Source of the DNA: Alphaproteobacteria bacterium
GTDB taxonomy: Bacteria; Pseudomonadota; Alphaproteobacteria; RF32; CAG-239
Length of the DNA: 64,000 nt
Direction of reading: 5' to 3'
Assembly: GCA_044432975.1 (NCBI GenBank)
Contig: JAWXUC010000001.1
Location: forward strand, 212,604-276,603
Shown here: in pieces, positions 35,811-59,173 of the stretch
Layout of the letters: every line of letters starts with the position of its first letter
Numbering within the stretch: position 1 is the stretch's first letter
Position numbers and translations under genes: made by a program
The notes under the pieces: generated by a model
Seen by the model: the letters and a program-made list of their open reading frames with translations, nothing else
What the model was told of the DNA's origin: nothing
The model's database searches: none

Positions 35811-38033
35811 TCATCTCTGATTTAAATCCTTCATCATCTTTAACTTAGTAGGATCTATAGAGGTTTTTTGAGTTTCAGGAGCTGCAACATTTGGATGCTC
35901 CTCCCTAACTCTATTTTTCATAGCCTCAAGCCTAGACTTTCTAGCCTCATCACCAGTAGACTCGTTATCTTTTTCAGGAGCTACCATTTTCAACTTACTA
36001 GGATCACTCAAATCAATTTGAGCTTGAGGAGCCGCAACGTTAGGATGCTCTTCCCTAATACTTCCTTTCATGGCCTCAAGTCTAGCTCTTCTATCCTCAT
36101 TACTAATAGTTTCCTTTTCTTTTTCAGGCATTACCATTCTCAACTTACTAGGATCACTCAAGTCAATTTGTGATTGAGGAGCAGCAACATTAGGATGCTC
36201 TTCCCTAATTTTTGCTTTCATAGCCTCCTTAGCTTCTTTTTCTTTATCTACTACTGGCTCATTAATATTCATCGCTTCTTTTGGTTTTTCAACACCATTA
36301 ATATAAACGGCTAGGTCTGCCTTTCTTGCATATTCTTCCATTTTTGCAATAAACTCGGGAGAAGATTTTTCAGGATTTAAGTTAATACCTTTCATTCCTC
36401 TCTCAAAAGCATTTTGCATAAATTTTTCAAAATATTTATCATTATCAGGATTCTTAGGATCACAAGCAACCTTAGCTTTATTAGAGCTTGCATATTTAGC
36501 TTGAAAACTACCAGTACCATTACCTTCTTTATCTTTCATATCAATGCTTAAGCCTTCGGCACCAACTTTTTCTGTTACCAATTCTTGATCTTTTTCATCG
36601 CGAAGAGCTTCCCAACGTTTGATTTCAGCATCTCTCCAGTCTTCACCCTCTTGAGTATTATCATCACCGTCAAGTTCAACTTCATCACCTTCGCCCTCTT
36701 GGCCTCCATTTGTTGGAGGAGTTGGCTCTGGAGTTGGCTCTGGAGTTGGTTCTGGAGTTGGCTCTGGAGTTGGCTCTGGAGTTGGCTCTGGAGTTGGCTC
36801 TGGAGTTGGCTCTGGAGTTGGCTCTGGAGTTGGTTCTACTACAGGAGTAGTTACCTCTGCCACAGGAGTAGTAATTACTTGACCATCATCTTCAAGCCCT
36901 ACTTCATCAATATCAAGCATAGGTGTACCTACCTCAACAGCAGGCCCGTCTATCTCAGCTTCTTCTTTTTCATTTAATTTTTGTTCTTTCCATTTATCAA
37001 ATTCTTCTTTAATAAAAGCACCAACACCCATATCAGTTCCGTGTTCTACATGCTCATCAAAAAGTCTTTCAAATTCCTCCCTAGCAGCCTCTTCTCCTTC
37101 TTTACCAAAACCACTGTCTGCTAAAAATTCATTAAATAACTCTTGTTCTTTGTTATAGTTATCTATCTCTTCTTGTGATAACTCCTCAGAAGGTAAATCC
37201 TGAACTTCTTGCTCAACTACAGGATCTTGAGTCTCTTGCTCTACTACAGGATCAGGAACAGTTTGAACCCTAATCTCTGGTTCAAAATCAGTAAAACCTC
37301 TTACAGCATCAACTTGCTCTTGATAAGCCTCGTCTTCATACCAAGAATCATCAACAGCAACTACTTCTGGTTCTGCTTCGGGCTCTTTATTTTCAACAAC
37401 TGTTACTTCTGGTTCTTTATTTTCAACAACATCTTCTTTTTTCTTATCTTCTACAGGCTTCTCAGGAGCAACTTCTTTATTATCAAGCTCTTTTTCTGCT
37501 TTTAATTTATTTCTTTCACGATTAATTTCTTGGTTTAAGGTTACAAGCTCTTTTCTATATTTACCCATTTCTTTAGCTTTTGCATTTTTTTCTTGAGCTT
37601 TTGCCTGTTGTTTTTCAACCTGTGCTTTTCTAGCCAAAAGAGTCTCTAGCTTTTTAGATGTTAACTCTTCTTCTTTAGCCTTATCTTCAGCCTCTTTAAC
37701 TTCTTCTTTAGCAGGAGTTTCAGGAACTTCTGGTGTTTCAACACCTTCTTTTTTTGCAGCATCTCTAGCTTTTCTCTCTTTATCAGCCTCAACCCCAATA
37801 TCCAAAGCAAGCTCTTTCTCTGCAAGAGTATAATCATTAGAATCCATTATTTCATCAAAAGCCTTCTCATCTAATAACTGAGCCAATCTGCTATCAGAAT
37901 TAATATTAGCTTTATCTTTAGAAAATTTATCAGCCCAAGAATCAAAATCACCTAAATCTGTTCCGTCTTTGCTTTTCTCCATATAAATATCTTCTAAATA
38001 TTTCAATAAATCTGCTGACATTGCCATAACCAT
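35811..38033 (-). CDS. Large acidic low-complexity repeat protein (hypothetical)
   Basis: 740 aa with no signal peptide, very rich in E, D and K. It contains an (EPTP)n block and three ~45-aa C-terminal repeats of REEHPNVAAPQxQIDLSDPSKLKMV. The codon usage is consistent and a terminator follows. Confidence 0.6.
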   Translation of the reverse strand: MVMAMSADLLKYLEDIYMEKSKDGTDLGDFDSWADKFSKDKANINSDSRLAQLLDEKAFDEIMDSNDYTLAEKELALDIGVEADKERKARDAAKKEGVETPEVPETPAKEEVKEAEDKAKEEELTSKKLETLLARKAQVEKQQAKAQEKNAKAKEMGKYRKELVTLNQEINRERNKLKAEKELDNKEVAPEKPVEDKKKEDVVENKEPEVTVVENKEPEAEPEVVAVDDSWYEDEAYQEQVDAVRGFTDFEPEIRVQTVPDPVVEQETQDPVVEQEVQDLPSEELSQEEIDNYNKEQELFNEFLADSGFGKEGEEAAREEFERLFDEHVEHGTDMGVGAFIKEEFDKWKEQKLNEKEEAEIDGPAVEVGTPMLDIDEVGLEDDGQVITTPVAEVTTPVVEPTPEPTPEPTPEPTPEPTPEPTPEPTPEPTPEPTPEPTPPTNGGQEGEGDEVELDGDDNTQEGEDWRDAEIKRWEALRDEKDQELVTEKVGAEGLSIDMKDKEGNGTGSFQAKYASSNKAKVACDPKNPDNDKYFEKFMQNAFERGMKGINLNPEKSSPEFIAKMEEYARKADLAVYINGVEKPKEAMNINEPVVDKEKEAKEAMKAKIREEHPNVAAPQSQIDLSDPSKLRMVMPEKEKETISNEDRRARLEAMKGSIREEHPNVAAPQAQIDLSDPSKLKMVAPEKDNESTGDEARKSRLEAMKNRVREEHPNVAAPETQKTSIDPTKLKMMKDLNQR
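36718..36838. repeat. Tandem 12-bp repeat (GGAGTTGGCTCT, ~10 copies) encoding (PEPT)n
   Basis: The array is a near-perfect direct tandem. The opposite-strand ORF reading (WSWLWS)n is an artefact. Confidence 0.85.
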
Positions 38034-38309
38034 TCTCCTGAAAAAACATATAATTTAAAACTATAATATCATAAAATTAACATAAAGTAAAGAACAAAAA
38101 TTGACAAAAAAAACAAGAACCCTTAAAAGGTTTTACGATTAAACATTCTATAAGCATCTATTTACTACATTACTAGTAATATAGTAATCACATTAACAAC
38201 ACACCACCTATTCTAAAATAATAAAAAGATAAAAGCATCACATCTCTTGACATAACCTATATTTTATATTAAAAAAGCAAGGTTAATTAATTTTCAAGGA
38301 AAATGCAAA

Positions 38310-40928
38310 ATGTTAGATAAAAATTTTAATCCTCAAGAGGCTGAGGCAAAAATTAGCCAACAATGGCTAGATAAAAAATTATTCAAATGTAATCCAGATT
38401 CAAACAAGCCTGCATTTTCTGTCATTATTCCACCACCAAATGTTACTGGCAACTTACACATTGGCCATGCCCTAAACAACTCTATTCAAGATTGCCTATG
38501 CCGTTATAAAAGAATGGCAGGCTTTGATGTTTTATGGCAACCTGGCACAGATCATGCTGGTATCGCAACCCAAATGGTTGTTGAACGCAATTTAGCAAAA
38601 GAAGGAATTTCTCGCCACGACTTAGGACGAGAAAAATTTGTTGAAAAAATTTGGGAATGGAAAGCCCATTCTGGCGGCCAAATCATCAATCAATTAAAAA
38701 GATTAGGCTCTTCTTGCGATTGGGATAGAGAACGCTTTACAATGGACGAAGGCTTGTCAAAAGCCGTATTAAAAGTATTTACAACCTTATTCAAAGACGG
38801 ACTCATTTATAAAGACAAAAGATTAGTAAACTGGGATTGTCAATTACAAACCGCCGTTTCTGATTTAGAAGTTATTCAAAAAGAAACCGTTGGTAAAATG
38901 TGGTATATGAAATATATGGTAGAAAATTCTGATGAATTTATTATTGTTGCCACAACCCGTCCAGAAACATTTTTTGGCGATACTGCCGTTGCAGTTAATG
39001 CTGAAGATCCAAGATACAAACACCTTATTGGCAAAAACGTAATGTTGCCAATCATCAATAAACCTATTCCTGTTATTGCAGATGAACATGCAGATCCAGA
39101 AAAAGGTACTGGTGCCGTAAAAATCACCCCTGCTCATGACTTTAACGACTTTGAAGTTGGCAAACGTCATAACTTACCATTAATAAATATCTTAACCAAA
39201 GAAGCTTTATTAAATGAAAATGTTCCTCAAAAATATCAAGGCTTAACTCCTTTAGAGGCTCGTCCTTTAGTATTGCAAGAAATTAAAGATTTAGGACTAT
39301 ATGTAAAAGAAGAAGACAACGCAATGGTTATCCCTTACGGAGACAGAAGCAACGTTATTATTGAGCCTTGGTTGACCGACCAATGGTTTGTAGATGCTAA
39401 AAAATTAGCGATTCCAGCAATAGAAGCCGTAAAATCTGGCAAAACAAACTTTGTGCCAAAACAATGGGAAAACACTTATTTTGAATGGATGAACAATATT
39501 CAACCATGGTGTATTTCTCGTCAACTTTGGTGGGGACATCAAGTTCCTGTTTGGTACGGTCCAGATGAACATATGTTCTGCGAAGAAACAAAAGAATTAG
39601 CTCAAAAAGTAGCAAACACTCATTATGGTAAAGAAGTAGAATTACGTCGTGACACAGACGTTTTAGACACTTGGTTTTCTTCAGGGCTTTGGGCTTTTTC
39701 AACCCTTGGTTGGCCAAAAGAAACTACAGAACTACACAAATATTACCCAACATCTGCACTAGTAACTGCATTTGATATTATATTCTTCTGGGTTGCTAGA
39801 ATGATGATGATGAGCATGTATTTCCAAAAAGAAGTGCCTTTCAAAGATATTTATATTCACGGTCTTGTTAGAGATGAACATGGTCAAAAAATGAGTAAAT
39901 CAAAAGGTAATGGTATTGACCCACTAACAATTATTGACAAATTTGGCGCCGATCCTTTGCGTTTTGCATTATTATCTCAAGCTGGCCATGGCAGAGATGT
40001 TTTAATGGGAGAAAAATTAGTTGAAGAAAACAGAAACTTTGTTACAAAAATTTGGAATTCTGTTAGATTCTGCGAAATGAACAATTGTGTTTATGATGCA
40101 AACTTTGACTTATCTTCTATTAAATTAGACATTAATAAATGGATGCTAACAAAACTTTCTGATAGTGCTAAAAAAATTGGCAAAAACATTGAAGAATATT
40201 CATTTAACGATGCCTCAAAAGAACTTTATCACTTCATCTGGTCAAATTTCTGCGACTGGTACTTAGAAGCTATTAAACCAATTTTCTACGGTGATGATGA
40301 AGCATTAAAAGCCGAAACATCTAAAGTAGCTGGCTTTGTGGTTAGAGAAATGTTAAAACTAATCTCTCCATTTATGCCATTTGTTGCTCAAGAACTGTGG
40401 TCTCAATTAGGAAATAATGACAATATGATAATGCAAGAATCTTGGACATCTATTGAAGCTTTAGAAAATCAAGCAACATTTAATAATGTAGAATGGTTGT
40501 TTGAATTTATTGGTTCAATAAGAGCTTTACGTCAAGAATCTAAAATACCTGCTGGAGCAAAAATTAAACTTTGCTTATCAGATATTAAAAATGCAGAAAA
40601 ATCTATTATAGAAAACAATACAAACATTATTCAATTTTTGGCTCGTGTTGAAAATATTGAATATGTAGATACAAAAATAGAAAACTGTGTTGCTTCTGTA
40701 ATGGGCGACTTCAGCTTTATGATTCCTCTAGAAGGTTTGATTGATGTTGAAAAAGAAAGGCTAAGAATAGCTGCAGAAAAAGAAAAAATAAATGCAGTTA
40801 TTGCCAAATTGAAAGTTCAACTAGACAACCCTAATTTTGTAAACAATGCCCCCAAAGCAGTTGTTGAAAAAAATCAACAAGCGCTAGCCGAGGCAATGGA
40901 ATCTCTAAAGAAATTAGAAGCTATTTAG
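38310..40928 (+). CDS. valS: Valine--tRNA ligase
   Basis: It has the HIGH motif (NVTGNLHIGHA), the KMSKS motif, an editing domain and a C-terminal coiled coil. Confidence 0.95.
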   Translation: MLDKNFNPQEAEAKISQQWLDKKLFKCNPDSNKPAFSVIIPPPNVTGNLHIGHALNNSIQDCLCRYKRMAGFDVLWQPGTDHAGIATQMVVERNLAKEGISRHDLGREKFVEKIWEWKAHSGGQIINQLKRLGSSCDWDRERFTMDEGLSKAVLKVFTTLFKDGLIYKDKRLVNWDCQLQTAVSDLEVIQKETVGKMWYMKYMVENSDEFIIVATTRPETFFGDTAVAVNAEDPRYKHLIGKNVMLPIINKPIPVIADEHADPEKGTGAVKITPAHDFNDFEVGKRHNLPLINILTKEALLNENVPQKYQGLTPLEARPLVLQEIKDLGLYVKEEDNAMVIPYGDRSNVIIEPWLTDQWFVDAKKLAIPAIEAVKSGKTNFVPKQWENTYFEWMNNIQPWCISRQLWWGHQVPVWYGPDEHMFCEETKELAQKVANTHYGKEVELRRDTDVLDTWFSSGLWAFSTLGWPKETTELHKYYPTSALVTAFDIIFFWVARMMMMSMYFQKEVPFKDIYIHGLVRDEHGQKMSKSKGNGIDPLTIIDKFGADPLRFALLSQAGHGRDVLMGEKLVEENRNFVTKIWNSVRFCEMNNCVYDANFDLSSIKLDINKWMLTKLSDSAKKIGKNIEEYSFNDASKELYHFIWSNFCDWYLEAIKPIFYGDDEALKAETSKVAGFVVREMLKLISPFMPFVAQELWSQLGNNDNMIMQESWTSIEALENQATFNNVEWLFEFIGSIRALRQESKIPAGAKIKLCLSDIKNAEKSIIENNTNIIQFLARVENIEYVDTKIENCVASVMGDFSFMIPLEGLIDVEKERLRIAAEKEKINAVIAKLKVQLDNPNFVNNAPKAVVEKNQQALAEAMESLKKLEAI

Positions 40929-40938
40929 TCAAAGCATA

Positions 40939-40966
40939 AAAAGAGCGTTGAAATTTCAACGCTCTT
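40939..40966 (+). terminator. Intrinsic terminator of valS
   Basis: It consists of the hairpin AAAGAGCGTTGAAATTTCAACGCTCTTT plus a T-rich tail. Confidence 0.55.
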
Positions 40967-40988
40967 TATTTATATGCAAAATAAACTA

Positions 40989-41834
40989 TTATTTAATTTC
41001 TTGAACTTTTTCTAATAACCCTTCCCAGTTGCGTTGATTATCCATATCAAACTGCATTTGTTTTTCATCAGCAATTTGAAAACGCTTAACCCCTGGGGTG
41101 TGGCTTGTTGCTTGATACAACCAATAAGCTTCTGCTTTTAGGGCTTCTTCAATTGGTTTATCAATAGATTCATAAACCATTTGCTTACAAGCATTAATAG
41201 ACTCTGCAGGAAACATTGCAATACGTTTTGCTAAAGCATCTACATAAGCATCAATTTCATCTGCATCAAAAGCTTTATTAATTGTACCATAAGCTTCTGC
41301 TTCATCAGCACTAAAATCTCTACCACTTAAGATGATTTCTAAAGCTCTACCCAAACCTGTTTGACGAGCCATTCTAGATGTTCCACCACCACAAGGTAAA
41401 ATGCCCATTCCAACTTCCATTTGCATAAATTTATATTTGCCACGCACCGCAAAACGCATATCACAAGCAAGAGCAAATTCATGACCGCCACCACGAGCAA
41501 AACCTTCTAGTTTTGCAATTGTTGCTTGTGGAAGCTTGCTAATTCTTTCAAGAACAAGTTGCAAATCTAAACATTTTGCTTCATCACGAGAAACCGCTTC
41601 AATAGACATATCTTTTAATAAATATGTGTCATAATGTGCTACCCAAATTTCTGGATTTGCAGATTGAAAAACAACAACCTTAACGCTTCTGTCTCTCTCT
41701 AATAAAATTGCTAAAGTGTTTAAGTCTACCATCATCTCCAAACCTTGAATATTCACAGGCGGATAATCAAAAGTAACAGTTAAAATTGCACCATCTAATT
41801 TAGTTTTAAACGTAGTAAATTTATCATAATCCAT
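40989..41834 (-). CDS. Enoyl-CoA hydratase/isomerase (crotonase) family protein
   Basis: It has the crotonase fold and an oxyanion-hole region (FARGGGHEFALACDMRF). Confidence 0.8.
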   Translation of the reverse strand: MDYDKFTTFKTKLDGAILTVTFDYPPVNIQGLEMMVDLNTLAILLERDRSVKVVVFQSANPEIWVAHYDTYLLKDMSIEAVSRDEAKCLDLQLVLERISKLPQATIAKLEGFARGGGHEFALACDMRFAVRGKYKFMQMEVGMGILPCGGGTSRMARQTGLGRALEIILSGRDFSADEAEAYGTINKAFDADEIDAYVDALAKRIAMFPAESINACKQMVYESIDKPIEEALKAEAYWLYQATSHTPGVKRFQIADEKQMQFDMDNQRNWEGLLEKVQEIK

Positions 41835-41944
41835 AAGTTCTCTCCTTTTTTTAATTTAGAACTTAGATATATCCTCAATCATAACAATTACAATATAACC
41901 TTAAGTTATCCTCCCAAACAATCATAACTATAACTAACAAATAT

Positions 41945-41987
41945 TACCAATAACGTCATACGTTAAACGTAATACGTTATTGGTAAT
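41945..41987. repeat. Palindromic element, family 2, second copy (13-bp perfect outer arms, ACGTTAAACGT core)
   Basis: The sequence is TTACCAATAACGT-CATACGTTAAACGTAAT-ACGTTATTGGTAA. Confidence 0.5.
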
Positions 41988-42032
41988 TAACAACAAAACA
42001 CTATTTCTCAAAAGACAATATATCTCCAGGGC

Positions 42033-42110
42033 TCTCATCGCGTGCTACTTACCAACAAAAAACCCCTGCTTTCAGCAGAGGATTTTTGTTGGTAGGCGCA
42101 CGGGGATTGA
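42033..42110. repeat. Direct repeat copy A of a tRNA-3'-end-like att sequence plus hairpin (78 bp)
   Basis: It shares ~75 of 78 identical nt with 42191-42273. On the minus strand the T-arm of the tRNA-like part is split by a 74-nt GC-rich insert. Confidence 0.6.
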
Positions 42111-42190
42111 CTTCGTCGTCCTTTGTTCATTCGCTTCGCTCACCGCCACACTTCCGTGTGGCTTTCACTGCAGTCTCGAACCCCTTTCTT

Positions 42191-42273
42191 CCGTGGTTCT
42201 CATCGCGTGCTACTTACCAACAAAAAACCTCTGCTTTCAGCAGAGGATTTTTATTGGTAGGCGCACGGGGATT
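42191..42273. repeat. Direct repeat copy B of the tRNA-3'-end-like att sequence
   Basis: See copy A. Here the tRNA-like 3' end is uninterrupted. Confidence 0.6.
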
Positions 42274-42291
42274 CGAACCCCGGACCCACTG
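42255..42291 (-). pseudogene. tRNA 3' fragment (variable loop, T-arm, acceptor 3' strand, CCA) followed by a terminator hairpin; putative attachment-site remnant
   Basis: The minus strand reads AGTGGGTC-CGGGG-TTCGAAT-CCCCG-TGCGCCT-A-CCA. No matching 5' acceptor strand (AGGCGCA), D-arm or anticodon arm was found within 150 nt upstream. The hairpin CCTCTGCTGAAAGCAGAGG plus a T-run follows. Confidence 0.5.
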
Positions 42292-42573
42292 ATTAAGAGT
42301 TATATAGCCTGTAAGAAAATACATAGCAATTTTAGATAGTTAAACCCTCTCAAAAATCCATCCATAAAAATTTTCCGAGTTTTTTCCGAGTTTTTGATAA
42401 AACCCGAACATAAATTATTTTTCAAAAAAATATAGGTGTATTAAAGTGCCTTTGTTAGTATCGGCTAATATTTTGCTGTATTTTGGTGTATTTAGTGGTC
42501 TCTTTTAGTGCTGAAAGTTAAAACGTTCTACTGTACTCTCTTAATTGTATTTAATTGAAATTTGGAGAATATT

Positions 42574-42810
42574 ATGCAAAAAAAATATATTAACACAAAA
42601 GAATTATCCGAGTATTTAGGGCTTGCTGTTTCTACATTAGCAACATTTCGCTCTGACGATAAAGGACCCCCATATAAAAAGATTGGTAGACTTGTCCGCT
42701 ATAATGTAGATGAAGTTGAAACTTGGTTGGAAGAAAATCAACAATATTTACAGAAATCGCTGGACAATCACGACAACATACCTAAGCTGAACATAATAAA
42801 AATCCATTAG
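42574..42810 (+). CDS. AlpA/excisionase-like HTH DNA-binding protein
   Basis: The sequence INTKELSEYLGLAVSTLATFRSDDKGPPYKKIGRLVRYNVDEVETWL fits the AlpA pattern. The ATG at 42574 is preceded by GGAGA; the TTG at 42562 used by the ORF track is less likely. Confidence 0.65.
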   Translation: MQKKYINTKELSEYLGLAVSTLATFRSDDKGPPYKKIGRLVRYNVDEVETWLEENQQYLQKSLDNHDNIPKLNIIKIH

Positions 42811-42832: not shown

Positions 42833-44080
42833 ATGACACAGCGAGTAAAGAAAAAAATAACTCCCGAAGTTTTAGATAATTTTCTTAAAGGGCAAGAAGA
42901 CATCAAAGTCAAAGATACAGAAATATCTGGCTTCTATGTTTGGTATTATGCTGTCAGCGGGCGAAAAACATTTTTTATGCGTTATTATGCAAAAGAAGAG
43001 AAAAAAGAAAGAAACATCAAAATCGGCTGTTATCCAGACATTAGATTAAAAGAAGCAAGGGAAATTGCTTATGAATATAAATCAAGCGTTATCCGTGGTG
43101 GCAATCCAGTTGTAGAGATAAAACAACAACAAGAGGACGCTTACCAAGAAAAAGCCAATAATCTAAAAGTTAAAGTTGTTTTGCAAGAGTATTTAACTGA
43201 ATATACTGCTAGATATAACAAACCTCGCACATTAGAAATTCAAAAAGGTATTATAAAACGTTTTATAAACAAAGAAATTGGTAATATTTTTATCAAAGAA
43301 TTAAAACTATTAGATATAAATAAGCTTGTTTCAAAAGTAGGAGCTAAAACTCCTGCTCAAGCCAATCAATGCAAAGCCTTACTTTCTTGTTTTTTAAATT
43401 GGTGCGAAGATTATGGATATAGAGAGCTAAACTCAAATCCCTGCAGAAAAATAAAAAAGTTTAAATTGAAAGTTAGAGATAGAGTTTTATCGTTTGAAGA
43501 ATATGGACGTTTATTTGACGCAATAGAAAAAGGCAAAGAATATGATATATACGCCTCATCTTCCTTTGATATAATTAAATTTTTAGCTATTACAGGCTGT
43601 CGCTTATCAGAAGCCAAAGACTTAAAATGGGTTGAAGTTGATTTTAATAATAGCTTATTAAGATTATTAGATAGCAAAACGGGAGAAAAAGCCGTTCCAA
43701 TAGGCAATGAAGCACTTAATATATTAAAGGAAGCTTATAAGAAAAAGTCCTGTGAATACGTTTTTCCCTCTTCAAAACACGCTGGGCAACCATTCTTTGA
43801 TGTAAGAAGACCATGGTTCTTTATTAGAAAAGAGGCAAAACTAGATGGGCTTAGAATACACGACCTCCGCCATTCATTTGCAACCGCTGGCAGTATGATG
43901 GGCGAGAATATCGCAGTTATAGGAAGTGTTTTAGGGCATAGGCAAATATCAACAACACAAAGATATACCCATATAAATAACATTGCAGGAATAGAAGTTG
44001 CCAATAAGATTTCAAGCAAAATCATACAGATGTCTAAGCAATATTCCGAAGATTGCAATTTATTAGTCGCAAATGCTTAA
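42833..44080 (+). CDS. int: Tyrosine recombinase / phage integrase
   Basis: 415 aa whose C-terminal catalytic domain carries R...HDLRHSFAT...RYTH (catalytic Tyr). It lies adjacent to the tRNA-like att repeats. Confidence 0.9.
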   Translation: MTQRVKKKITPEVLDNFLKGQEDIKVKDTEISGFYVWYYAVSGRKTFFMRYYAKEEKKERNIKIGCYPDIRLKEAREIAYEYKSSVIRGGNPVVEIKQQQEDAYQEKANNLKVKVVLQEYLTEYTARYNKPRTLEIQKGIIKRFINKEIGNIFIKELKLLDINKLVSKVGAKTPAQANQCKALLSCFLNWCEDYGYRELNSNPCRKIKKFKLKVRDRVLSFEEYGRLFDAIEKGKEYDIYASSSFDIIKFLAITGCRLSEAKDLKWVEVDFNNSLLRLLDSKTGEKAVPIGNEALNILKEAYKKKSCEYVFPSSKHAGQPFFDVRRPWFFIRKEAKLDGLRIHDLRHSFATAGSMMGENIAVIGSVLGHRQISTTQRYTHINNIAGIEVANKISSKIIQMSKQYSEDCNLLVANA

Positions 44081-44198: not shown

Positions 44199-44561
44199 AT
44201 GAGCGAACTAGCATTTGAAATAGAAGAAATTGATGTAGAAAAAGTAAAATCATTAAACGATAGTTTTCGCAGAGAGATATATAACAGCAAATTGGGGCTT
44301 TTACATTATACACCAATGGTTAGTGCCTTAAACGATGAAGACCGATTCGAGCTAACAAGCCTCGTTCAACAGTTTGAAGATTTTAATGAAGACAATGACC
44401 CTTATGGCGAACACGACTTTGGCAAGATTGATTTTAGAGGGGAAAGCTATTTTTTCAAAATTGATTATTACGATAACGCCTTAAAATATCACTCGCCTGA
44501 TAAAAGCAACCCAAAATTAACAAAAAGAGTTTTAACCCTAATGAACACACAGGAATATTAA
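44199..44561 (+). CDS. DUF3768-like small protein
   Basis: The motif DNDPYGEHDFGKIDF...FKIDYYD...SPD...LTKRVLTLM matches my recollection of the DUF3768 consensus. A strong RBS AGGAGA precedes it. Confidence 0.4.
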   Translation: MSELAFEIEEIDVEKVKSLNDSFRREIYNSKLGLLHYTPMVSALNDEDRFELTSLVQQFEDFNEDNDPYGEHDFGKIDFRGESYFFKIDYYDNALKYHSPDKSNPKLTKRVLTLMNTQEY

Positions 44562-44562
44562 G

Positions 44563-44982
44563 ATGACAACAAGATGTATCATAAAAATAAAAGGCTATTA
44601 TAATGGCAAAATTGACATATACCACCACGCAGACGGCTATCCCGATGGCGTTGGACTAGACCTATATAATAAAATCCAACCATTATTAGAAGAAAATATC
44701 GGGCGAATTGAGCAAGGGTATAGCCTCAAAAATAATTTTGGCACAATTATAGAAAGTGTTATGGGTATTGATAATGGTTATGAATTTACAGAAAATCGCC
44801 ATTTTGATATAGATTATATGTATATTATAGATATGAAAAAATCAACTATCCTCTGCCATGAGGGTTATTATGACGATGACGGCTTTAAGGTTGTTTGCAG
44901 GCACGATTTAGCCAAAGTTAAAGAACACGAAGAAAAACAACAACTATTACACCAACAACAAGAAGAGCAAAAAGGAGCTTAA
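44563..44982 (+). CDS. Hypothetical protein
   Basis: 139 aa with a Gln/Glu-rich tail, in tight spacing with its neighbours. Confidence 0.4.
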   Translation: MTTRCIIKIKGYYNGKIDIYHHADGYPDGVGLDLYNKIQPLLEENIGRIEQGYSLKNNFGTIIESVMGIDNGYEFTENRHFDIDYMYIIDMKKSTILCHEGYYDDDGFKVVCRHDLAKVKEHEEKQQLLHQQQEEQKGA

Positions 44983-44984
44983 CC

Positions 44985-45233
44985 ATGACAAATAAAAATA
45001 TAGAATTATTCAAAAATTTAGTTAGCACACAAATAGAAGAAGTTAAGCAATATTTAGAAGAGCTTAATATGTTTCATACCGCATTAGAGGTTCACATGGC
45101 AGAATATACAGAAAAAGAAGTTTTATCTTATATAGTCGGTGGCGAGCCATTTGGCGATAATTTACCCGCAAAAAGAATATTAGATTTTCATCAATCAATC
45201 ACAACAATAGCCCATTCATTAAAAAAGCACTAA
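44985..45233 (+). CDS. Hypothetical protein
   Basis: 82 aa in the operon-like array. Confidence 0.35.
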   Translation: MTNKNIELFKNLVSTQIEEVKQYLEELNMFHTALEVHMAEYTEKEVLSYIVGGEPFGDNLPAKRILDFHQSITTIAHSLKKH

Positions 45234-45249
45234 ATAAAGGAAAAGTATT

Positions 45250-45522
45250 ATGGATACAATAGAAGCATTAGAAAGAAAGCTAAAAGAAGCCAAAAGCCAA
45301 AGAGCGGTGGAGGCAACTTATCCAACGGGGATTGTGGTTGATTTATCCAGCCCACAAGGCAATGCTTTTTATATTATAGGCTTGTGCCAAGAGATAGGAC
45401 GCAAGCTAAATATCCCCCAACAAGAAATAGATAAATTCATAAAAGAGTGCAAAAACAAAGACTATTCAAATTTATTACAAGCCACGCAAAAAATGTTTGG
45501 CTTGATTTTTATTGGAAAATAA
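45250..45522 (+). CDS. Hypothetical protein
   Basis: 90 aa in the operon-like array. Confidence 0.35.
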   Translation: MDTIEALERKLKEAKSQRAVEATYPTGIVVDLSSPQGNAFYIIGLCQEIGRKLNIPQQEIDKFIKECKNKDYSNLLQATQKMFGLIFIGK

Positions 45523-45564
45523 ATTGATATTCGCTTGCATTTTTAGATAAATATTAGTAAAATC

Positions 45565-47469
45565 GTGTCAATTCTGAATAATCGTTCTAAAACAAAGGAA
45601 TATAAAGTTATGGATATTAAGAAACTAGATGGCAAGAGTTTGGATATTGAAAATGTTGATATAGAAAAGTTAAAAGCTATATTTCCTCAAGTTTTTATGG
45701 AAAATAAGCTTGATATTAGTAAGCTTCTTAATCTTTGTGGTGAATATATTGAGAGAGATGATGAAAAATATAAGTTTGAATGGAAAGGTAAATCTGATTG
45801 TTATAAGGTTGCTGGCAAGCGTTCTACAGGCACTTTGCGTCCTGCACCGCAAGAAAGTATAGATTTTGAAAATACTAATAATCTTTATATTGAGGGAGAT
45901 AATTTAGAAGTATTAAAACTCTTGCAAACTGCGTATTATCGCAAGGTTAAAATGATTTATATTGACCCTCCTTATAATACAGGCCATGATTTTGTTTATG
46001 AAGATGACTTCAAAGACCCAATTGCAAAATATAAAGAAATTACAGAACAAACAACCAAATCAAACGTTGAAACAATGGGTCGTTATCATACCAACTGGCT
46101 TAATATGATGTATCCAAGACTAAGGCTCGCCTCAAACCTTTTGCGTGATGATGGCGTTATTTTTATATCTATTGATGATAACGAAATAACCAACCTCCGC
46201 CGTTTATGCGATGAAGTATTTGGGGAAGAAAATTTTGTTGACTGTTTACATTGGAAGAAGAAAAAACAACCATCTTTCTTGGCTAAGCATACAGCAAAAG
46301 TTATGGAGTATGTTTTAATATACGCAAAAAACTTTAATAGCTTAGAAAAATTATCTATTGAAACTCTTTCTGACGCAACAAAAAAAGTTATTAACATTTC
46401 AAATCAAGAAACAAAAAGACGTTTTAGCAAAGGTGTAAGAGTAAAGATTGGAGATACAGGCGTAATAAAAGCTGGACGATATAAAGTAAAAACAATGGAA
46501 GTTGAATATTTACAAGATATATACTACCAAAATGGATTGACTACAAATGAAGTTGATGTTGTTTCCAAGTTTTCTGTTTCTCAAGATAAAATAGATAATT
46601 TCATTTCTGAAAATTTACTTTTTATCACAGAAAATAAAGGATTAAGAAGAGATGTCTCTGAAGAAGAAAAATTAAAAAGAAAATCTATTACTGATTTGTT
46701 ATTAAGCGAATATGGAGATAGCCAAGAAAGTGATAATGAGCAAAAAGAAATTTTTGGTGAAAGATTATTTGATTATACAAAGCCAACAAAACTAATATAT
46801 AATTTTACTAAATCTCTTTTATGCAATGATAATGATATTATTCTTGACTTTTTCTCGGGAAGTGGAACAACCGCCCACGCTGTTATGCAATTGAATGCTG
46901 ATGATAATATAAATCGTCAATTTATTGTTGCACAAATACCCGAGCAAACAGGACTAGAAGAATATAAAACCATTTGTGAAATAGGCAAAGAGCGTATTCG
47001 CCGTGCTGGGGCTAAGATTAAAGAGCAAAATCCAAATGTTGATACTGGCTTTAAGGTTTTCAAACTAGATACTTCAAATTTGAAAAAATGGGACGACACG
47101 CCTATTCAAGATGATGATGAGGCAACTTTGTTTGAGCGTATGAATGAAATGGAAAAAACATTAAAAACAGATAGAAACGAGCTAGATTTCATCTATGAAG
47201 TTATGTTAAAATTAGGTATTCCATTGACTTATAGCATTTCCATAATGCAAATTGGCACACGCAAAGTTTATTCTATCGGAGATGATAGCTTGATTTTAGT
47301 TTGTATTGATAGCTCTAGCGGTGGTATAACAGCCGAAGACATTACAGCAATGTGCGACATTGCCCCTGCCAAAATAGTCGCAAGCGAAGAAGCCTTTGCC
47401 GATGATGTTGCCCTCTCAAATGCTTATTATATAAGCAAAGATAAAAAAATAGAAATTGAGTTGTTGTAA
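45565..47469 (+). CDS. mod: Type III restriction-modification Mod subunit (N6-adenine DNA methyltransferase)
   Basis: 634 aa. Motif IV reads IYIDPPYNTG in the N-terminal half and the AdoMet motif I (FFSGSGTTAHA) lies in the C-terminal half. A variable target-recognition region lies between them. Confidence 0.85.
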   Translation: MSILNNRSKTKEYKVMDIKKLDGKSLDIENVDIEKLKAIFPQVFMENKLDISKLLNLCGEYIERDDEKYKFEWKGKSDCYKVAGKRSTGTLRPAPQESIDFENTNNLYIEGDNLEVLKLLQTAYYRKVKMIYIDPPYNTGHDFVYEDDFKDPIAKYKEITEQTTKSNVETMGRYHTNWLNMMYPRLRLASNLLRDDGVIFISIDDNEITNLRRLCDEVFGEENFVDCLHWKKKKQPSFLAKHTAKVMEYVLIYAKNFNSLEKLSIETLSDATKKVINISNQETKRRFSKGVRVKIGDTGVIKAGRYKVKTMEVEYLQDIYYQNGLTTNEVDVVSKFSVSQDKIDNFISENLLFITENKGLRRDVSEEEKLKRKSITDLLLSEYGDSQESDNEQKEIFGERLFDYTKPTKLIYNFTKSLLCNDNDIILDFFSGSGTTAHAVMQLNADDNINRQFIVAQIPEQTGLEEYKTICEIGKERIRRAGAKIKEQNPNVDTGFKVFKLDTSNLKKWDDTPIQDDDEATLFERMNEMEKTLKTDRNELDFIYEVMLKLGIPLTYSISIMQIGTRKVYSIGDDSLILVCIDSSSGGITAEDITAMCDIAPAKIVASEEAFADDVALSNAYYISKDKKIEIELL

Positions 47470-47507
47470 AAATTCTAATTACGGCGAATGTGCCATAATT
47501 AAAAATA

Positions 47508-47969
47508 ATGATAAGAAAGGAAAACAAAATGAAAAGAAACTTTGAAACTATGAAAACCATTTTTTCTAATGCTATACTTGCATTAGAAAAAAAAGATAAT
47601 ATACAAATATCCGATATTGTTGACAGTAAAAACAAAGACGAAGTATATAATTTTAATTTAATGATAGAAGATGCGTTCTTTAATACATGGATAGATCCAC
47701 TGGATAAGATTCAATTCATATCAAATCTAACAGGAAAAGGAGAGCGTTTCTTCAATTTAACTAAAAATCAAAATTTATTAGAGGAACTTGATTTAAAATA
47801 TAGTGATTTGTTGAGTGTTCTTTCAACAGAATCTATTCTTGAAAAAGCGGAATGGATTATAAAAAATGACACTCATTTTCATAATATGAATATAATGTAT
47901 AGAGAATCTGGCGAAAAAATATCATATAAAGATTTTTGCAAACAATTTTCTGAAAGTTTATTTAAATAA
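47508..47969 (+). CDS. Hypothetical protein inserted between mod and res
   Basis: 153 aa with no recognisable motif. It is very AT-rich. Confidence 0.4.
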   Translation: MIRKENKMKRNFETMKTIFSNAILALEKKDNIQISDIVDSKNKDEVYNFNLMIEDAFFNTWIDPLDKIQFISNLTGKGERFFNLTKNQNLLEELDLKYSDLLSVLSTESILEKAEWIIKNDTHFHNMNIMYRESGEKISYKDFCKQFSESLFK

Positions 47970-48107
47970 TGAAACTACAATTTACAAAACAAGGCACTCG
48001 TCATCCCGAACTTGTTTCGGGATCTCCAAAAGGTGTAGATGAGATGCTGAAACAAGTTCAGCATGACGAATTATGTGTTCGTGATAATGCTTTGGGGGTG
48101 TTTCAAT
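47969..48107 (+). pseudogene. Duplicated 5' end of res (MKLQFTKQ...) reading into the insertion; probable remnant
   Basis: A 26-nt identity with the true res start (AATGAAACTACAATTTACAAAACAAG) is followed by 38 unrelated codons that include the left inverted repeat. Confidence 0.4.
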
Positions 48108-48621
48108 GAAGCAAGGATATGTTTATATAATGACAAATAAATACAATACTACTTTTTATATTGGGGTAACAAGTAATATTGAGCGTCGTGTATATGAACA
48201 TAAAAATAATTTAGTTAAAGGTTTTACAGAAAAATATAATGCTCATAAATTGGTTTATATCGAGCAATATAACTTAGTAACAGAGGCAATTGCTAGAGAA
48301 AAACAATTAAAAAATTGGCACAGAGATTGGAAAATAAATTTAATTAAAAAACAAAATCCTAACTTTGAGGACTTATATACTCGGAAAATTTCTAATGCAC
48401 AAGAGATTTTAGAGATCCCGAAACAAGTTCGGGATGACGAGAGTGGAGTTCAGGATTACGGATTGGGAATTAGTGATGGCGAGTGCGTTATTTGGGAGAA
48501 CGAGTGTGGAGTTCGGGATGAAAGCTTGGAAATTAAGGGTGATTGTTTAGAGTTGTACGAAAATATCGTACAACTGAAGATTCCAAAAAGTATTAAGCAA
48601 ATTGCAAAGGATAAGAAATGA
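48106..48621 (+). CDS. GIY-YIG nuclease domain protein (YhbQ/COG2827-like) with a C-terminal extension
   Basis: Its N-terminus GYVYIMTNKYNTTFYIGVTSNIERRVYEHKNN carries GIY...YIG with the catalytic R/E residues. The stop overlaps the res ATG (ATGA). Confidence 0.75.
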   Translation: MKQGYVYIMTNKYNTTFYIGVTSNIERRVYEHKNNLVKGFTEKYNAHKLVYIEQYNLVTEAIAREKQLKNWHRDWKINLIKKQNPNFEDLYTRKISNAQEILEIPKQVRDDESGVQDYGLGISDGECVIWENECGVRDESLEIKGDCLELYENIVQLKIPKSIKQIAKDKK

Positions 48622-51600
48622 AACTACAATTTACAAAACAAGAATTTCAAACAAATGCTGTTGAGGCGGTGGCTGGATTGTTTAAGGGGCAAGAAGAAGA
48701 TTCTGCAACTTTTTCGATTGTTGATAATTCGGCTCAAACATCTTTCTTGGCTGGAGGCTTGGGCAATCAAATCTTGATTGATGATAAAACTTTGGCAGAA
48801 AACCTTAACGCTATTCAAAAACATAACTCTTTGCCATTGAGCGATGTTTTGCCCTCACCCGCAGGCAAGCCTGCGACCTCTCCCCAAATGGGAGAGGTGT
48901 TAAAAGGTCTTCCCGTTTCTATTGAAATGGAAACAGGAACAGGAAAGACCTATGTTTATATTAAAACTATTTTAGAGCTTAATAAACGTTATGGATTTTC
49001 AAAGTTTATTATTGTAGTGCCAAGCGTGGCTATTCGTGAGGGTGTGTTGCAATCTTTTAAAGATACCACAGAGCATTTCAAAAAAGAATATCCAAAAGCT
49101 TTATATAACTTTTTTATCTATAATTCTTCTCGCTTGAATGATGTTCGCCATTTTGCCCGTTCGCAAGATATACAAATTATGATTATCAACATTGACGCTT
49201 TCAAAAAGGCAGAAAATGTTATCAACCAAGAGCGTGCAGATGACGGAAATGGTAAAATTATCAAATATCTTCAAGATACTAACCCTGTTGTAATTATTGA
49301 TGAGCCTCAATCTGTTGATAATACCGACAAGGCAAAAGAGGCAATTGCAAGCCTTAATCCACTTTGCGTGCTTAGATATTCGGCGACACATCGTGAAAAG
49401 AATAATCTTGTTTATCGTTTAACCCCTGTTGACGCTTACAAAAAAGGCTTGGTTAAGCAAATATGCGTTATCTCTAATTCTGTAATCAATGACGCTAATA
49501 AACCATATATAGCCTTAAAATCTGTGTCTAATGCCAATGGCTTTACGGCTAAGATTGAGATTGATGTTGAGGGAAAAGACGCAAAAATAACTCGTAAAGC
49601 AATAACCATTAAGCCTGGAACAGACTTATATCTTGAATCTGGCAACCGCTCTTTATATGAGGGATATGCGGTGGCAGGAATAGATTGCACCGCTGGTTTT
49701 GAGGGTGTTGAGTTTGCAAATGGCGAATATGTGGCTCTTGGCAAGGCAATTGGCTCTGTTGATGATAATGTTCTTAAACGTTCGCAAATTTATCATACTA
49801 TTAAAACGCATTTTGATAAAGAGCTTCGCTATTTTGCAAAAGATATAAAGGTTTTATCATTATTTTTTATTGATGAGGTTAAGAAATACCGCACCGAAGA
49901 TGGCGAACAAGGTATTTATGCAAAAATGTTTGAAGAATGTTATAACGAGTTATTAGCAAAACCCAAATATGCCCCATTAAAAGAGCTATTTAATACAGAT
50001 GTTGTAAATGCCCATGATGGCTATTTTTCTCAAGATAAAAAAGGTGCTTACAAAAACACCAAAGGCGATACTCAAGCGGACGATACGACATATAATGTTA
50101 TTATGAAAGATAAGAAAAAGCTGTTGTCTTTTGATTGTCCTTTGCGTTTTATTTTCTCGCACTCTGCCCTAAAAGAGGGTTGGGATAATCCTAACGTATT
50201 CCAAGTTTGCACATTATTAGAACAAAAATCTGTTTTTACTTGTCGTCAAAAGATAGGTCGTGGATTGCGTTTATGTGTTAATCAACAAGGAGAGAGAATA
50301 GAAGATAAAAATATCAATATTCTTCACGTTGTGGCAAATGAAAACTTTGCGGATTTTGCCGATAAACTTCAAAAAGAGATTGAAGCAGAAACAGGTATGA
50401 AGTTTGGCACGCTAGAAATTAGCAATCTTCTTGGGCTAACTTATGAAGAAGAAGTTGAGGTTGAAAAGGAAATCACTCAAGAGCAAGCTCAAATAATTGT
50501 GGAAGTTATAGAGGCAAGCAATAATATTGAAGAGGCAAATATTCCCGAGCCTATCAAAGAACAAGTCAAAGATTTGATTAAAGAAGAAAAGCCAATTTCT
50601 GTGGCAACCCTTGTTAATAAAACTTATACCGAAGTTATTAAAGAAGAAAAAACTGTTGACTATGCCGAGGCAGTAGAAATGCTGGAAGATTTGAAAGAGC
50701 AAAAAATTATTTCAAAAGATGGCAAAATAAAAGATACCATGAAAGAGCAACTAAAAGCAGGAACATTAGATTTAGGCGAGCGTTGGTCTAATGCTAAAAA
50801 AAGAGCCGTTTTACAAGCCGTTCAAAAAGCAGACAACAAGCCTGTAATTAGGGACGCAAGCAAAGAGGTTTCTGTAAAGCTTAAAAAGCAAGCTTTTATT
50901 AGCCCCGAGTTTATGGAGTTATGGAACAAAATCAAACAAAAAACAACATATCGTGTGCAATTTGATTTAGAAGAATTAACAAAAAATGCAATTAAAGACT
51001 TAAAAGCAATGCCCCCAATTGCAACCGCTAAAATTATGACGCAAACTGCAGGGCTTGATGTTGCAAAAGCAGGTATTACTCACGTTGAGCAATCTACAAC
51101 AACAGAAGAGCTAAAACAAAATTATTACTCTTTGCCTGATATTTTGCGTTTAATATCTATCAAAACCTTGCTAAAACGCTCAACTGTTAATAAGATTATT
51201 CAAGATAGTGGCAGAGCAAAAGACTTTTTGAAAAATCCTCAAGAGTTTTATGAAAAAGCCTTGGAGATTATAGAGAAAAATCGCCATGCGTTGGCAATTG
51301 ACGGAATTAAATATATTAAGCTTGCTGGCGAAGAATATTATATGCAAGAGATTTTTGAGAGCCAAGAGCTTATTGCTAACCTAGATAAAAATGCGGTGGC
51401 GGTTAATAATAGCGTTTATGACCATGTTATTTATGATAGTTCAACTGTGGAATTGCCTTTTGCAAAAGCGTTAGATAATGATCCCGAAGTTAAAATGTTT
51501 TTCAAAATCCCAAGCCGATTTAAGATTGAAACCCCAATTGGCACATATAATCCCGACTGGGCGGTTTATTTAGAGAAAAACGGCGAACACAAACTTTATT

Positions 51601-51761
51601 TTGTGCTTGAAACCAAAGGCTCTAGTGATTTTCTTCAATTAAGACCAGAAGAAAAGCTAAAAATTCATTGTGGCGAGCAACACTTCAAAGCTCTTGAAAA
51701 CAATACAGTCTTCCCAAGCAAACCCGTTGTAAACTGGCAAGACTTTAAGAAGAGTATGTAA
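48618..51761 (+). CDS. res: Type III restriction enzyme Res subunit (SF2 helicase plus C-terminal PD-(D/E)xK endonuclease)
   Basis: 1047 aa with Walker A METGTGKTYV, the DEAH-like IIDEPQS, a C-terminal YNPDW...LETKG nuclease motif and long coiled-coil inserts. Confidence 0.85.
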   Translation: MKLQFTKQEFQTNAVEAVAGLFKGQEEDSATFSIVDNSAQTSFLAGGLGNQILIDDKTLAENLNAIQKHNSLPLSDVLPSPAGKPATSPQMGEVLKGLPVSIEMETGTGKTYVYIKTILELNKRYGFSKFIIVVPSVAIREGVLQSFKDTTEHFKKEYPKALYNFFIYNSSRLNDVRHFARSQDIQIMIINIDAFKKAENVINQERADDGNGKIIKYLQDTNPVVIIDEPQSVDNTDKAKEAIASLNPLCVLRYSATHREKNNLVYRLTPVDAYKKGLVKQICVISNSVINDANKPYIALKSVSNANGFTAKIEIDVEGKDAKITRKAITIKPGTDLYLESGNRSLYEGYAVAGIDCTAGFEGVEFANGEYVALGKAIGSVDDNVLKRSQIYHTIKTHFDKELRYFAKDIKVLSLFFIDEVKKYRTEDGEQGIYAKMFEECYNELLAKPKYAPLKELFNTDVVNAHDGYFSQDKKGAYKNTKGDTQADDTTYNVIMKDKKKLLSFDCPLRFIFSHSALKEGWDNPNVFQVCTLLEQKSVFTCRQKIGRGLRLCVNQQGERIEDKNINILHVVANENFADFADKLQKEIEAETGMKFGTLEISNLLGLTYEEEVEVEKEITQEQAQIIVEVIEASNNIEEANIPEPIKEQVKDLIKEEKPISVATLVNKTYTEVIKEEKTVDYAEAVEMLEDLKEQKIISKDGKIKDTMKEQLKAGTLDLGERWSNAKKRAVLQAVQKADNKPVIRDASKEVSVKLKKQAFISPEFMELWNKIKQKTTYRVQFDLEELTKNAIKDLKAMPPIATAKIMTQTAGLDVAKAGITHVEQSTTTEELKQNYYSLPDILRLISIKTLLKRSTVNKIIQDSGRAKDFLKNPQEFYEKALEIIEKNRHALAIDGIKYIKLAGEEYYMQEIFESQELIANLDKNAVAVNNSVYDHVIYDSSTVELPFAKALDNDPEVKMFFKIPSRFKIETPIGTYNPDWAVYLEKNGEHKLYFVLETKGSSDFLQLRPEEKLKIHCGEQHFKALENNTVFPSKPVVNWQDFKKSM

Positions 51762-54397: not shown

Positions 54398-54606
54398 AAT
54401 ACATCTTTACAACCTATTAGTTTATTTGTATAAATTGACTTAAAATAACATTTCTTTAGATTAAAATGCTTTTTTTCTTTTAATATCAATGTATGTTTAT
54501 TAACCTTTTGTTTATATTTTCCTTGCTTTTTTATAAAAAATATTCTATCATTAGTATAATTTCATTATTTAATACAATTAGTGGTTGAGAAGATGAGAAG
54601 CAAGAA

Positions 54607-55371
54607 ATGGATATTACAAAGGAATATATGACTATTACAGAGGTTGCGAACCTTTGGGACGTGCCTTTGGAAGATATACGTTATCTCGGCGAAGAGGGAG
54701 AACTTACAATCTGCATTCGCCGTATTCCTATGCGAGTTGCAATAGAAAGCATATTAGAAAAAAGCCCATACTTAAAAAGTCTACCAAAAAAATCCAAAGA
54801 GATTATGAAACTACTTGATGAGCCTCAACCTTTGCACCCAACAGACATCTATTTGCTTTTTGCCAATAAAGATAGAAAAATTAAAATCAATCGCCTTAAA
54901 ACCTTGCCTTTAATGAATATTGTTCATATTAAAACTCCTGATATAGAAGTTGGCTTTGAAGATATGATTATAACTGCAAGCGAAAGAAAGCGTTTTGAAT
55001 TTGAAAGAACAAACAAAATCTTAAAAGAAAGCATTTGCGAGCCTTTAACATTAAAATCAAGTGATTTTACTTGTATTGAATTATATGGCGAAACATTTAG
55101 CTTTGGCGAAAAGCAAGCTATTATTATAAAATATTTATATGATAGATATTATTCTGGCGATCCGTGGGTGCATGGCAAAACCTTATTGGCAAAAGCAAAT
55201 TCTGAAAGTTATAAGTTGGCCAATTTATTTAATAAACATCATTCTTGGCGTAAAGCTATTATTTCAAATGGGCGGGGTTATTATAGAATAAACCTGCCTT
55301 TTGCAGAACCAGCTCCCACAAGGCGTTCTAACATAGATGACACACCCTCCCTTTTTGATAATTTAGATTAA
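54607..55371 (+). CDS. Protein with an N-terminal excisionase/MerR-like HTH and an unknown C-terminal domain
   Basis: The HTH reads MTITEVANLWDVPLEDIRYLGEEGEL. 254 aa, followed by a terminator. Confidence 0.45.
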   Translation: MDITKEYMTITEVANLWDVPLEDIRYLGEEGELTICIRRIPMRVAIESILEKSPYLKSLPKKSKEIMKLLDEPQPLHPTDIYLLFANKDRKIKINRLKTLPLMNIVHIKTPDIEVGFEDMIITASERKRFEFERTNKILKESICEPLTLKSSDFTCIELYGETFSFGEKQAIIIKYLYDRYYSGDPWVHGKTLLAKANSESYKLANLFNKHHSWRKAIISNGRGYYRINLPFAEPAPTRRSNIDDTPSLFDNLD

Positions 55372-55397
55372 GCCTTTTTATAAGGCTTTTTTTATTG
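55370..55397 (+). terminator. Intrinsic terminator
   Basis: It consists of AAGCCTTTTTATAAGGCTT plus a T-run. Confidence 0.5.
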
Positions 55398-55410
55398 CCT
55401 CCATTCCTCC

Positions 55411-55452
55411 GCCTTACCTTGACCTTACCTTATGCGTTTTACGCCTTACCTT
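55411..55452. repeat. Three direct copies of CCTTACCTT in a 42-bp stretch
   Basis: Copies of G/ACCTTACCTT lie at 55411, 55422 and 55443, between the cargo block and the phage module. Confidence 0.5.
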
Positions 55453-55616
55453 AGCCATACCCTAAAAACAACAATTTCAATAAAAATAAAGCATATAAAG
55501 GCTTTGCGGTGGTTTTTATATAGCCATACTCCGACCCGTTAGCCTCCTTACCGACAAGCTAGATATAACAATATATAATAAAATCAAGTTAAAACACATA
55601 AAATGGAGTTGCATAT

Positions 55617-55841: not shown

Positions 55842-55843
55842 TT

Positions 55844-56895: not shown

Positions 56896-57053
56896 AAGAG
56901 ACAATGACATACAAAGAATAGTATTTGAAAGGCAAGTAAATACAAATAATTATAAAAGTGTTAAAAATTTTTAACTTAACATTTTTACAAAAATAGTTTA
57001 CATTTTTAGATATAATTGGAAATCGTTATATAAAAACACCAAACGGAACAATC

Positions 57054-59170: not shown

Positions 59171-59173
59171 AAA

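Follow-up and report, generated by a model that had tools for sequence, protein, structure and literature searches.

Genomic islands and prophages integrated into tRNA genes (tDNAs) were reportedly treated by Williams in 2002. A 3′ fragment is found in 3760 of the 3919 islands collected in Islander, and the crossover sites are anticodon-centred in 2083 of the 3919 and lie in the T-stem in 1836 (PMC4383910). Tandem island arrays are also known, with 125 cases recorded, each member of an array having its own integrase and its own tDNA fragment (Islander; Hudson et al., 2015; PMC4383910).

The window analysed here, a 64-kb stretch of DNA (64,000 nt) from an alphaproteobacterial MAG, holds a locus of this well-known kind: an ordinary prophage-tRNA junction beside an older, broken duplicate of a tRNA-end/terminator module. 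As in the Islander tDNA islands, a tyrosine integrase is accompanied by a displaced 3′ fragment that starts at a canonical crossover sublocation and marks the border of the element. Unlike those islands in which the intact tRNA stands at the integrase end, however, here the integrase end adjoins the displaced fragment, an orientation common to the window element and the three closest integrase relatives that we examined. We refer to the two copies of the tRNA end as copy B, which faces the integrase, and copy A, which faces the chromosomal genes; neither is a functional tRNA. Very probably, copy B represents the attR junction of this prophage and copy A is a non-functional relic that was there before it. 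The features on which this account draws are as follows.

42025–42108, minus strand: R(A), the second T-loop half, acceptor strand, CCA, terminator hairpin and inverted flank; adjoins the chromosomal crotonase gene and valS.

42081–42063, minus strand: terminator of R(A), from the terminator scan.

42109–42175, minus strand: insert splitting the T-loop of copy A, 67 nt (68 nt with one duplicated A).

42176–42184, minus strand: GGGGTTCGA, the T-stem 5′ strand and first T-loop half of copy A, cut off by the insert.

42185–42189, minus strand: spacer AGAAA from R(B) to the start of copy A, 5 nt, by direct reading.

42190–42273, minus strand: R(B), a T-loop half, acceptor 3′ strand, CCA, A-tract, terminator hairpin, T-tract and inverted flank.

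42246–42228, minus strand: terminator of R(B), from the terminator scan.

42255–42300, minus strand: copy B, displaced 3′ fragment of tRNA-Lys(CUU), 46 nt, from the anticodon loop to CCA.

42301–42561, no strand assigned: AT-rich arm from the tRNA fragment to the HTH_17 gene (P arm of the att site), with tandem repeats and a motif.

42562–42810, plus strand: HTH_17 (AlpA/excisionase-like) gene (Pfam PF12728, E = 3.6e-10); its start is at 42574 in Logan contigs.

42833–44080, plus strand: tyrosine integrase (PF00589, 1.8e-25) with an N-terminal arm-DNA-binding domain, Arm-DNA-bind_3 (PF13356, 3.1e-14).

44199–64000, plus strand: prophage body, from its Pfam domains, running off the window at 64000.

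Copy B (ACTCTTAATCAGTGGGTCCGGGGTTCGAATCCCCGTGCGCCTACCA, read from 42300 to 42255 on the minus strand) is the 3′ portion of a tRNA-Lys(CUU) and not a gene. Its parts can be followed in order as the anticodon loop, the 3′ anticodon-stem strand, the variable loop, the T-arm, the acceptor 3′ strand, the discriminator A and CCA, and 45 of the 46 positions are identical to the last 46 nt of an intact tRNA-Lys(CTT) that ARAGORN calls at a locus (L003) in another alphaproteobacterial MAG. The identity begins at the last base of the 5′ anticodon-stem strand, just before the anticodon loop, and the boundary of the fragment falls at the anticodon-centred one of the canonical crossover sublocations. The sequence on the 5′ side of copy B (minus strand) is AT-rich, unrelated to the L003 tRNA and without pairing to the fragment; at its other end, the fragment runs to the 3′ end of the tRNA, through the discriminator and CCA. 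The initial annotation had recognised a tRNA 3′ end at this position, and that identification holds, but it had placed the start at the variable loop, whereas the fragment begins further 5′, in the anticodon loop.

The 19-mer AATCCCCGTGCGCCTACCA from the tRNA end occurs exactly twice in the 64 kb, with none expected from shuffles. Scanning one genome per GTDB species recovered it at two loci, the intact tRNA-Lys of L003 and a further orphan tRNA fragment (L004) that begins in the same anticodon loop. Both belong to foreign MAGs, so the species of the window is not one of those represented in that scan. There was no match to the 19-mer in viral contigs. When phage and plasmid records were searched by BLAST, the matches were confined to the tRNA-derived part of copy B and lay under features annotated as tRNA-Lys or attP. 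Copy B is in this respect like the phage attP sites that carry a tRNA-Lys 3′ end, such as those of Serratia phage vB_SspM_BZS1 and many mycobacteriophages (matches at query positions 6–90). It can be seen, however, that only the tRNA-derived segment is shared with those sites, at 75–87% identity, and that the terminator, the flank and the insert are without a match.

Neither ARAGORN nor Rfam RF00005 found a cloverleaf with a 5′ acceptor strand, D-arm and anticodon arm at the locus, and no tRNA 5′ half is present there, in agreement with what had been read from the DNA at the outset. At default settings, ARAGORN called no tRNA at the locus, whether the insert was kept or removed. Nor did a permissive Rfam scan of 41800–42600 give a tRNA match; the rows that it did return were discarded as sub-threshold noise, for example miRNA models matching the palindrome described below. 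Across the whole 64-kb window the sole tRNA found by ARAGORN and by Rfam at gathering thresholds is a tRNA-Leu(TAG) at 22324–22408, and there is no tRNA-Lys gene. The tRNA-Leu(TAG) was considered as an intact partner for the fragment and rejected, its 3′ end being unrelated. None of these scans placed a complete tRNA over the site, so the reading of copy B as a fragment stands.

The HTH_17 gene lies approximately 270 nt from copy B, and the two-gene module reads away from it. That a tRNA fragment sits beside an alpA-int pair at the edge of an element had been proposed earlier and is confirmed here, the pair being an HTH_17 gene and a tyrosine integrase and the element a prophage. Its genes include DUF3768, type III mod and res genes with an intervening GIY-YIG gene, an SNF2 helicase, a ParB-methyltransferase, the small and large (GpA) terminase subunits and a lambda-family portal protein, the last two of which are matched at 3.6e-90 and 6.9e-99, respectively. 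The module is like those of P4/CP4-57 type in pairing PF12728 with PF13356/PF00589 as a two-gene operon at the att site. In contrast to a P4-type satellite, the cargo in the window comprises a lambda-like head module and type III restriction-modification, and the sequence relatives of the module are uncultured alphaproteobacterial or Rickettsiales-like elements, at no more than 60% identity.

Two smaller observations concern the body of the prophage. The GIY-YIG/T5orf172 nuclease gene (48106–48621) is placed between the type III methylase (45565–47469) and res (48618–51761) genes and overlaps the start of res by 4 nt. Further along, a gene-poor stretch before the ParB-methyltransferase gene (57504–57880) contains a perfect tandem 13-mer, TTTGGGTTGCCAC, in two copies (57772–57797), and could hold ParB-type or packaging-related sites.

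Within the P arm there are two sets of tandem repeats, 11-mers (TTTTCCGAGTT, 2.3 copies, 42371–42395) and 10-mers (TATTTTGCTG, 2.5 copies, 42469–42493), together with a 15-nt motif, TTTCAGCACTAAAAG (42516–42502, minus strand). In the form TTTCAGCAC[T/C]AAAAG this motif is common to the arms of the window element and of two related elements, L013 and L017. The 11-mers and 10-mers are plausible arm-type binding sites, and the repeats and motif of the P arm can be regarded as candidate integrase, Xis or promoter sites.

The nearest integrase relatives that could be recovered with their context are L017, L015 and L013, at 60%, 57% and 52% identity, and the HTH_17-then-int gene pair is present in all three. 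In L015 and L013, a tRNA(CAU) 3′ fragment starting in the anticodon loop (...GTATCATAATC...) lies on the opposite strand, 270–330 nt upstream, and neither has an intact tRNA. The contig of L013 ends 30 nt into its fragment, as expected of an exact attL/attR pair. L017 has a tRNA fragment in decayed form, which diverges right after the T-stem 5′ strand and may represent a secondary-site or nested junction. An anticodon-loop core, TC(T/A)TAATC, is shared by the window element, L013, L015 and L017; a more distant relative (L014, 44% identity) has no recognisable tRNA fragment, and IMG/VR yielded no relatives of the integrase. Since the geometry recurs in the relatives, it appears to be a property of this integrase clade, which makes copy B the integrase-proximal junction. 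It is taken to be attR because its far side continues into chromosomal genes. We also observed that positions 1–75 of L017 (minus strand) carry a Lys-like core, TATATCTTAATCAAT, with the decayed tRNA(CAU) fragment following approximately 18 nt later.

On that far side, to the left of the att site, are a chromosomal enoyl-CoA hydratase (crotonase) gene (40989–41834, minus strand) and valS, and the fragment side continues unbroken into 42 kb of chromosomal genes, among them valS and the tRNA-Leu. We propose that a temperate phage, equipped with an HTH_17 gene and a tyrosine integrase of the arm-binding kind, entered a minus-strand tRNA-Lys(CUU) gene, with the crossover probably falling within the anticodon loop. 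At the far junction, a presumed attL outside the window, the gene would be made whole by the tRNA 3′ half that the phage brought with it, and the original 3′ half would have been displaced to the HTH_17/int end, where it would be copy B (attR) with its terminator still following. Everything downstream of copy B would then have been in the chromosome before the phage arrived, including the second palindromic module (copy A, from the T-stem onwards), 5 nt beyond the first and with its T-loop broken by the insert of 67–68 nt.

This account would fix one border of a prophage to the nucleotide (approximately 42300) in an uncultured, AT-rich alphaproteobacterial genome, and it points to tRNA-Lys(CUU), with an anticodon-loop crossover, as the target of the phage. 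It also shows that, in a small clade of HTH_17-plus-integrase modules, the displaced fragment stays on the side of the integrase and anticodon loops are the sites used. For annotation, the gain is that the two fragments are not entered as tRNA genes and that the 119-aa ORF at 41980–42339, which we reject as spurious, is not entered as a gene; current understanding is otherwise unchanged.

Independent assemblies bear on both copies. The Logan contigs L001 and L002 begin within R(A) and extend from there into the crotonase gene and valS. In three samples, Logan contigs (L005–L007, compared with window positions 42200–42330) run unbroken through copy B and break exactly at a 32-nt stretch common to both repeats. 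The position of these breaks indicates that repeats of at least 31 nt do break these assemblies; as the contigs are unbroken at copy B, it has no 31-mer in common with any other locus of those samples. Either an attL copy is absent, then, or each of its 31-mers differs from copy B. A single central substitution, or a compensated change in the T-stem, in the phage-supplied tRNA half would suffice to remove the shared 31-mers.

The same contigs are relevant to two other ways of explaining the junction. Copy B could lie in the attP of a non-integrated element, or the element could have entered an already orphaned fragment, so that no intact tRNA-Lys would exist at the far end. An arrangement of P arm plus fragment is common to attP and attR, and in the Logan contigs the 31-mers of copy B are found at one locus only. 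Against this, the fragment side runs without interruption into the 42 kb of chromosomal genes, and the phage-supplied half may differ from copy B by just such a single central or compensated change; we regard this explanation as improbable. We give still less weight to an assembly artefact in which two strain variants of one locus were stitched together in tandem, in which case no read joining GAGAACCACGGAAGAAAGGGGTTCGAGACTGC would be expected. The sequence does come from a MAG, and the copies differ at 5 of 84 positions, as strain variants might. However, both variants are found in an independent sample (SRR26557936, Logan), B on the HTH_17/int side and A on the crotonase side; the contigs break exactly at the shared 32-mer, as for a true repeat; and the 81 nt between the copies are unique, a sequence that a stitching error would not create. 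Least credible of all, and barely worth entertaining, is a functional RNA at the site, whether a split or intron-containing tRNA, a tRNA-like minihelix or a piece of a permuted tmRNA. Once the insert is deleted and the threshold lowered, ARAGORN does report a 79-nt 'tRNA-???' whose anticodon has 4 nt; pairing is possible between the inverted flank of R(B) and the acceptor 3′ strand of copy A; and Rfam gives weak, sub-threshold rows for tmRNA models. These permissive rows reach 9–12 bits against gathering scores of 47–84, and nothing is found at ARAGORN default settings or at Rfam gathering thresholds. A tmRNA needs a G3:U70 pair in its acceptor, and the acceptor end here is without one; moreover, the fold of the copy A region, insert included, is not better than that of shuffled sequences (z = −1.37) and there is no 5′ half. 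The relaxed ARAGORN calls, intron-containing tRNAs and the pseudo-tRNA with the 4-nt anticodon, were set aside as implausible by-products of the palindrome. The reading of copy B as attR is retained in what follows.

R(B) and R(A) together form a direct repeat of 84 nt, identical at 79 of 84 positions (42025–42108 and 42190–42273) with a start-to-start spacing of 165 nt. The tandem repeat described in the initial annotation is thus real, but is longer than the approximately 75 nt given there. R(A) opens with AATCCCCGTGCGCCTACCA at 42108–42090 and continues with an A-tract, hairpin, T-run and flank as in R(B), to 42025. Beyond CCA the repeat carries on for a further 65 nt at 94% identity, taking in the terminator and the inverted flank. 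In the terminator scan both copies are followed by an 8-bp G+C-rich stem and the T-run TTTTTTGTTG (42246–42228 and 42081–42063), which bears out the earlier description of a terminator hairpin after the tRNA end; intrinsic terminator sites numbered 5, compared with 0.6 expected.

In each repeat unit, the flank past the hairpin repeats the T-arm, acceptor strand and CCA in inverted, degenerate form, and in R(B) this 30-nt flank after the T-run ends ...GATGAGAACCACGGA at 42190. Each unit is an imperfect palindrome of approximately 95 nt centred on the terminator, with arms of 46 nt that are 72% complementary, and the palindromic unit of R(B) folds with z = −8.25. The complementarity of the arms outside the terminator and the A/T tracts was reached by 12 of 20,000 shuffles and by 4 of 20,000 random 36-mers from the window (p ~2e-4 to 6e-4). 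A short inverted copy of a tRNA end was also observed in L015 (2130–2235, minus strand), where the 10-nt match is perfect (CACTACCAAA ... TTTGGTAGTG, approximately 75 nt apart); lying downstream of the tRNA fragment of that element, it echoes the palindrome in the window.

The first base of copy A is the first G of the T-stem, itself a canonical crossover sublocation. Ahead of the repeat in copy B stands the 9-mer GGGGTTCGA, which is seen again at 42184–42176 in copy A, with the insert and then AATCCCC after it. We estimate the chance of an exact match to this 9-mer within approximately 80 nt at ~3e-4. The split of the T-loop by a G+C-rich, hairpin-bearing segment, as originally noted, is upheld by this recurrence, although the segment measures 67–68 nt and not 74 nt. 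Its G+C content is 55%, against 32–37% in the region; it contains the hairpin CCACACGGAAGTGTGG (GCCACAC-GGAA-GTGTGGC), and its ends form a 4-nt terminal inverted repeat (GACT/AGTC) with a duplication of at most 1 nt.

The insert had no match in IMG/VR, in phage or plasmid records or in Rfam, and comparison with L013–L017 gave nothing above shuffles; a G+C-rich stretch in L014 was considered as a relative and rejected, the resemblance not being significant. Among JGI metagenomes the search returned only a 25-nt identity (AGCCACACGGAAGTGTGGCGGTGA...), at 4642–4666 of L008 and 8880–8904 of L009, in which the hairpin of the insert matches the last codons (3′ end) of a LacI-type regulator gene of an unrelated metagenome organism. 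There is no similarity beyond the hairpin, and we judged the match coincidental. As regards a possible REP/RPE/PATE-like or MITE identity, which would call for many copies dispersed through the genome, neither the palindromic module nor the insert has a further copy within the 64 kb, and the terminal inverted repeat of the insert is only 4 nt.

For the origin of copy A, we tentatively put forward a local duplication of the palindromic module with a few nucleotides of filler. Such a duplication accounts both for the 65 nt over which the repeat continues past CCA (94% identity) and for the absence of anything between the copies. A pure tandem duplication leaves the spacer AGAAA unexplained, as it matches neither flank, and the duplication reading is not secure because the T-stem boundary and the placement of the insert exactly in the T-loop are also expected from integrase events. 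It is possible, if doubtful, that copy A is the last relic of an older integration of T-stem type, the element having been deleted. In the fuller version of this idea, and one no less doubtful, successive integrations were nested, a T-stem/T-loop integrase acting in the same tRNA-Lys having left copy A before its element was lost, with the insert as the scar of another T-loop integration. The start of copy A at the T-stem and the position of the insert in the middle of the T-loop are both canonical crossover locations, the ends of the insert loosely resemble decayed T-loop copies (TTCGAga... / ...gTC-AAT), and in L017 a related fragment loses its similarity immediately past the T-stem 5′ strand. 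On the other hand, the gap between R(B) and copy A is only 5 nt, with no integrase or other gene between; the lost element must have carried a near-copy of the host flank as far as the repeat extends past CCA; the deletion must have stopped exactly at the homology borders; and the insert is without relatives in anything searched.

With two 3′ fragments of one tRNA lying one after the other, in the same orientation, downstream of an integrated element, the locus does resemble a tandem island array. Unlike such an array, however, only 81 nt of unique, non-coding sequence separate the window repeats, with no integrase among them, and copy A falls outside the Islander definition of an array member. 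The proposal in the initial annotation that the site holds attachment-site remnants is therefore borne out for copy B, a tRNA fragment beside HTH_17 and int, and is unproven in its suggestion of nested integrations for copy A, there being no element DNA between the copies, only 5 nt and the split T-stem. Some further origin for copy A, neither duplication nor an older integration, is unlikely. That the insert sits midway through the T-loop suggests a site-specific event. Two specific versions can be imagined, together something of a long shot: the insert between TTCGA and AT could be the footprint of a small, undescribed element that targets tRNA T-loops or an integrase scar, or the palindrome of approximately 95 nt could be a module that duplicates itself through template switching at tRNA terminators. 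A hint towards the latter is that the tRNA fragment of L015 is also followed by its 10-nt inverted copy of the tRNA 3′ end.

Several features of the chromosomal flank were observed in passing. The crotonase is 79–84% identical to proteins from Vibrio, Shewanella, cyanobacteria, Planctomycetota and others, a conservation across phyla that is unusually high for a gene in a 32% G+C alphaproteobacterial MAG and suggests, as judged from these identities, that the gene has spread horizontally. Its homologues were rejected as a synteny anchor, given this level of identity across distant phyla. At approximately 38000–42000 the cumulative GC skew of the window reaches its minimum and the gene orientation changes from mostly minus to mostly plus, a switch that could be replication-related or could reflect the prophage's own strand bias. 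Next to this region, 35811–38033 (minus strand) encodes an acidic protein of 740 aa that has a long run of (PEPT)n and, at its C-terminus, three repeats of approximately 40 aa (REEHPNVAAP...IDLSDPSKL.M). Finally, a near-perfect palindrome with 22-nt arms that are 91% complementary (ATTACCAATAACGTCATACGTT / AACGTAATACGTTATTGGTAAT) lies at 41943–41987, approximately 110 nt upstream of the crotonase start codon, and looks like the operator of a dimeric regulator.
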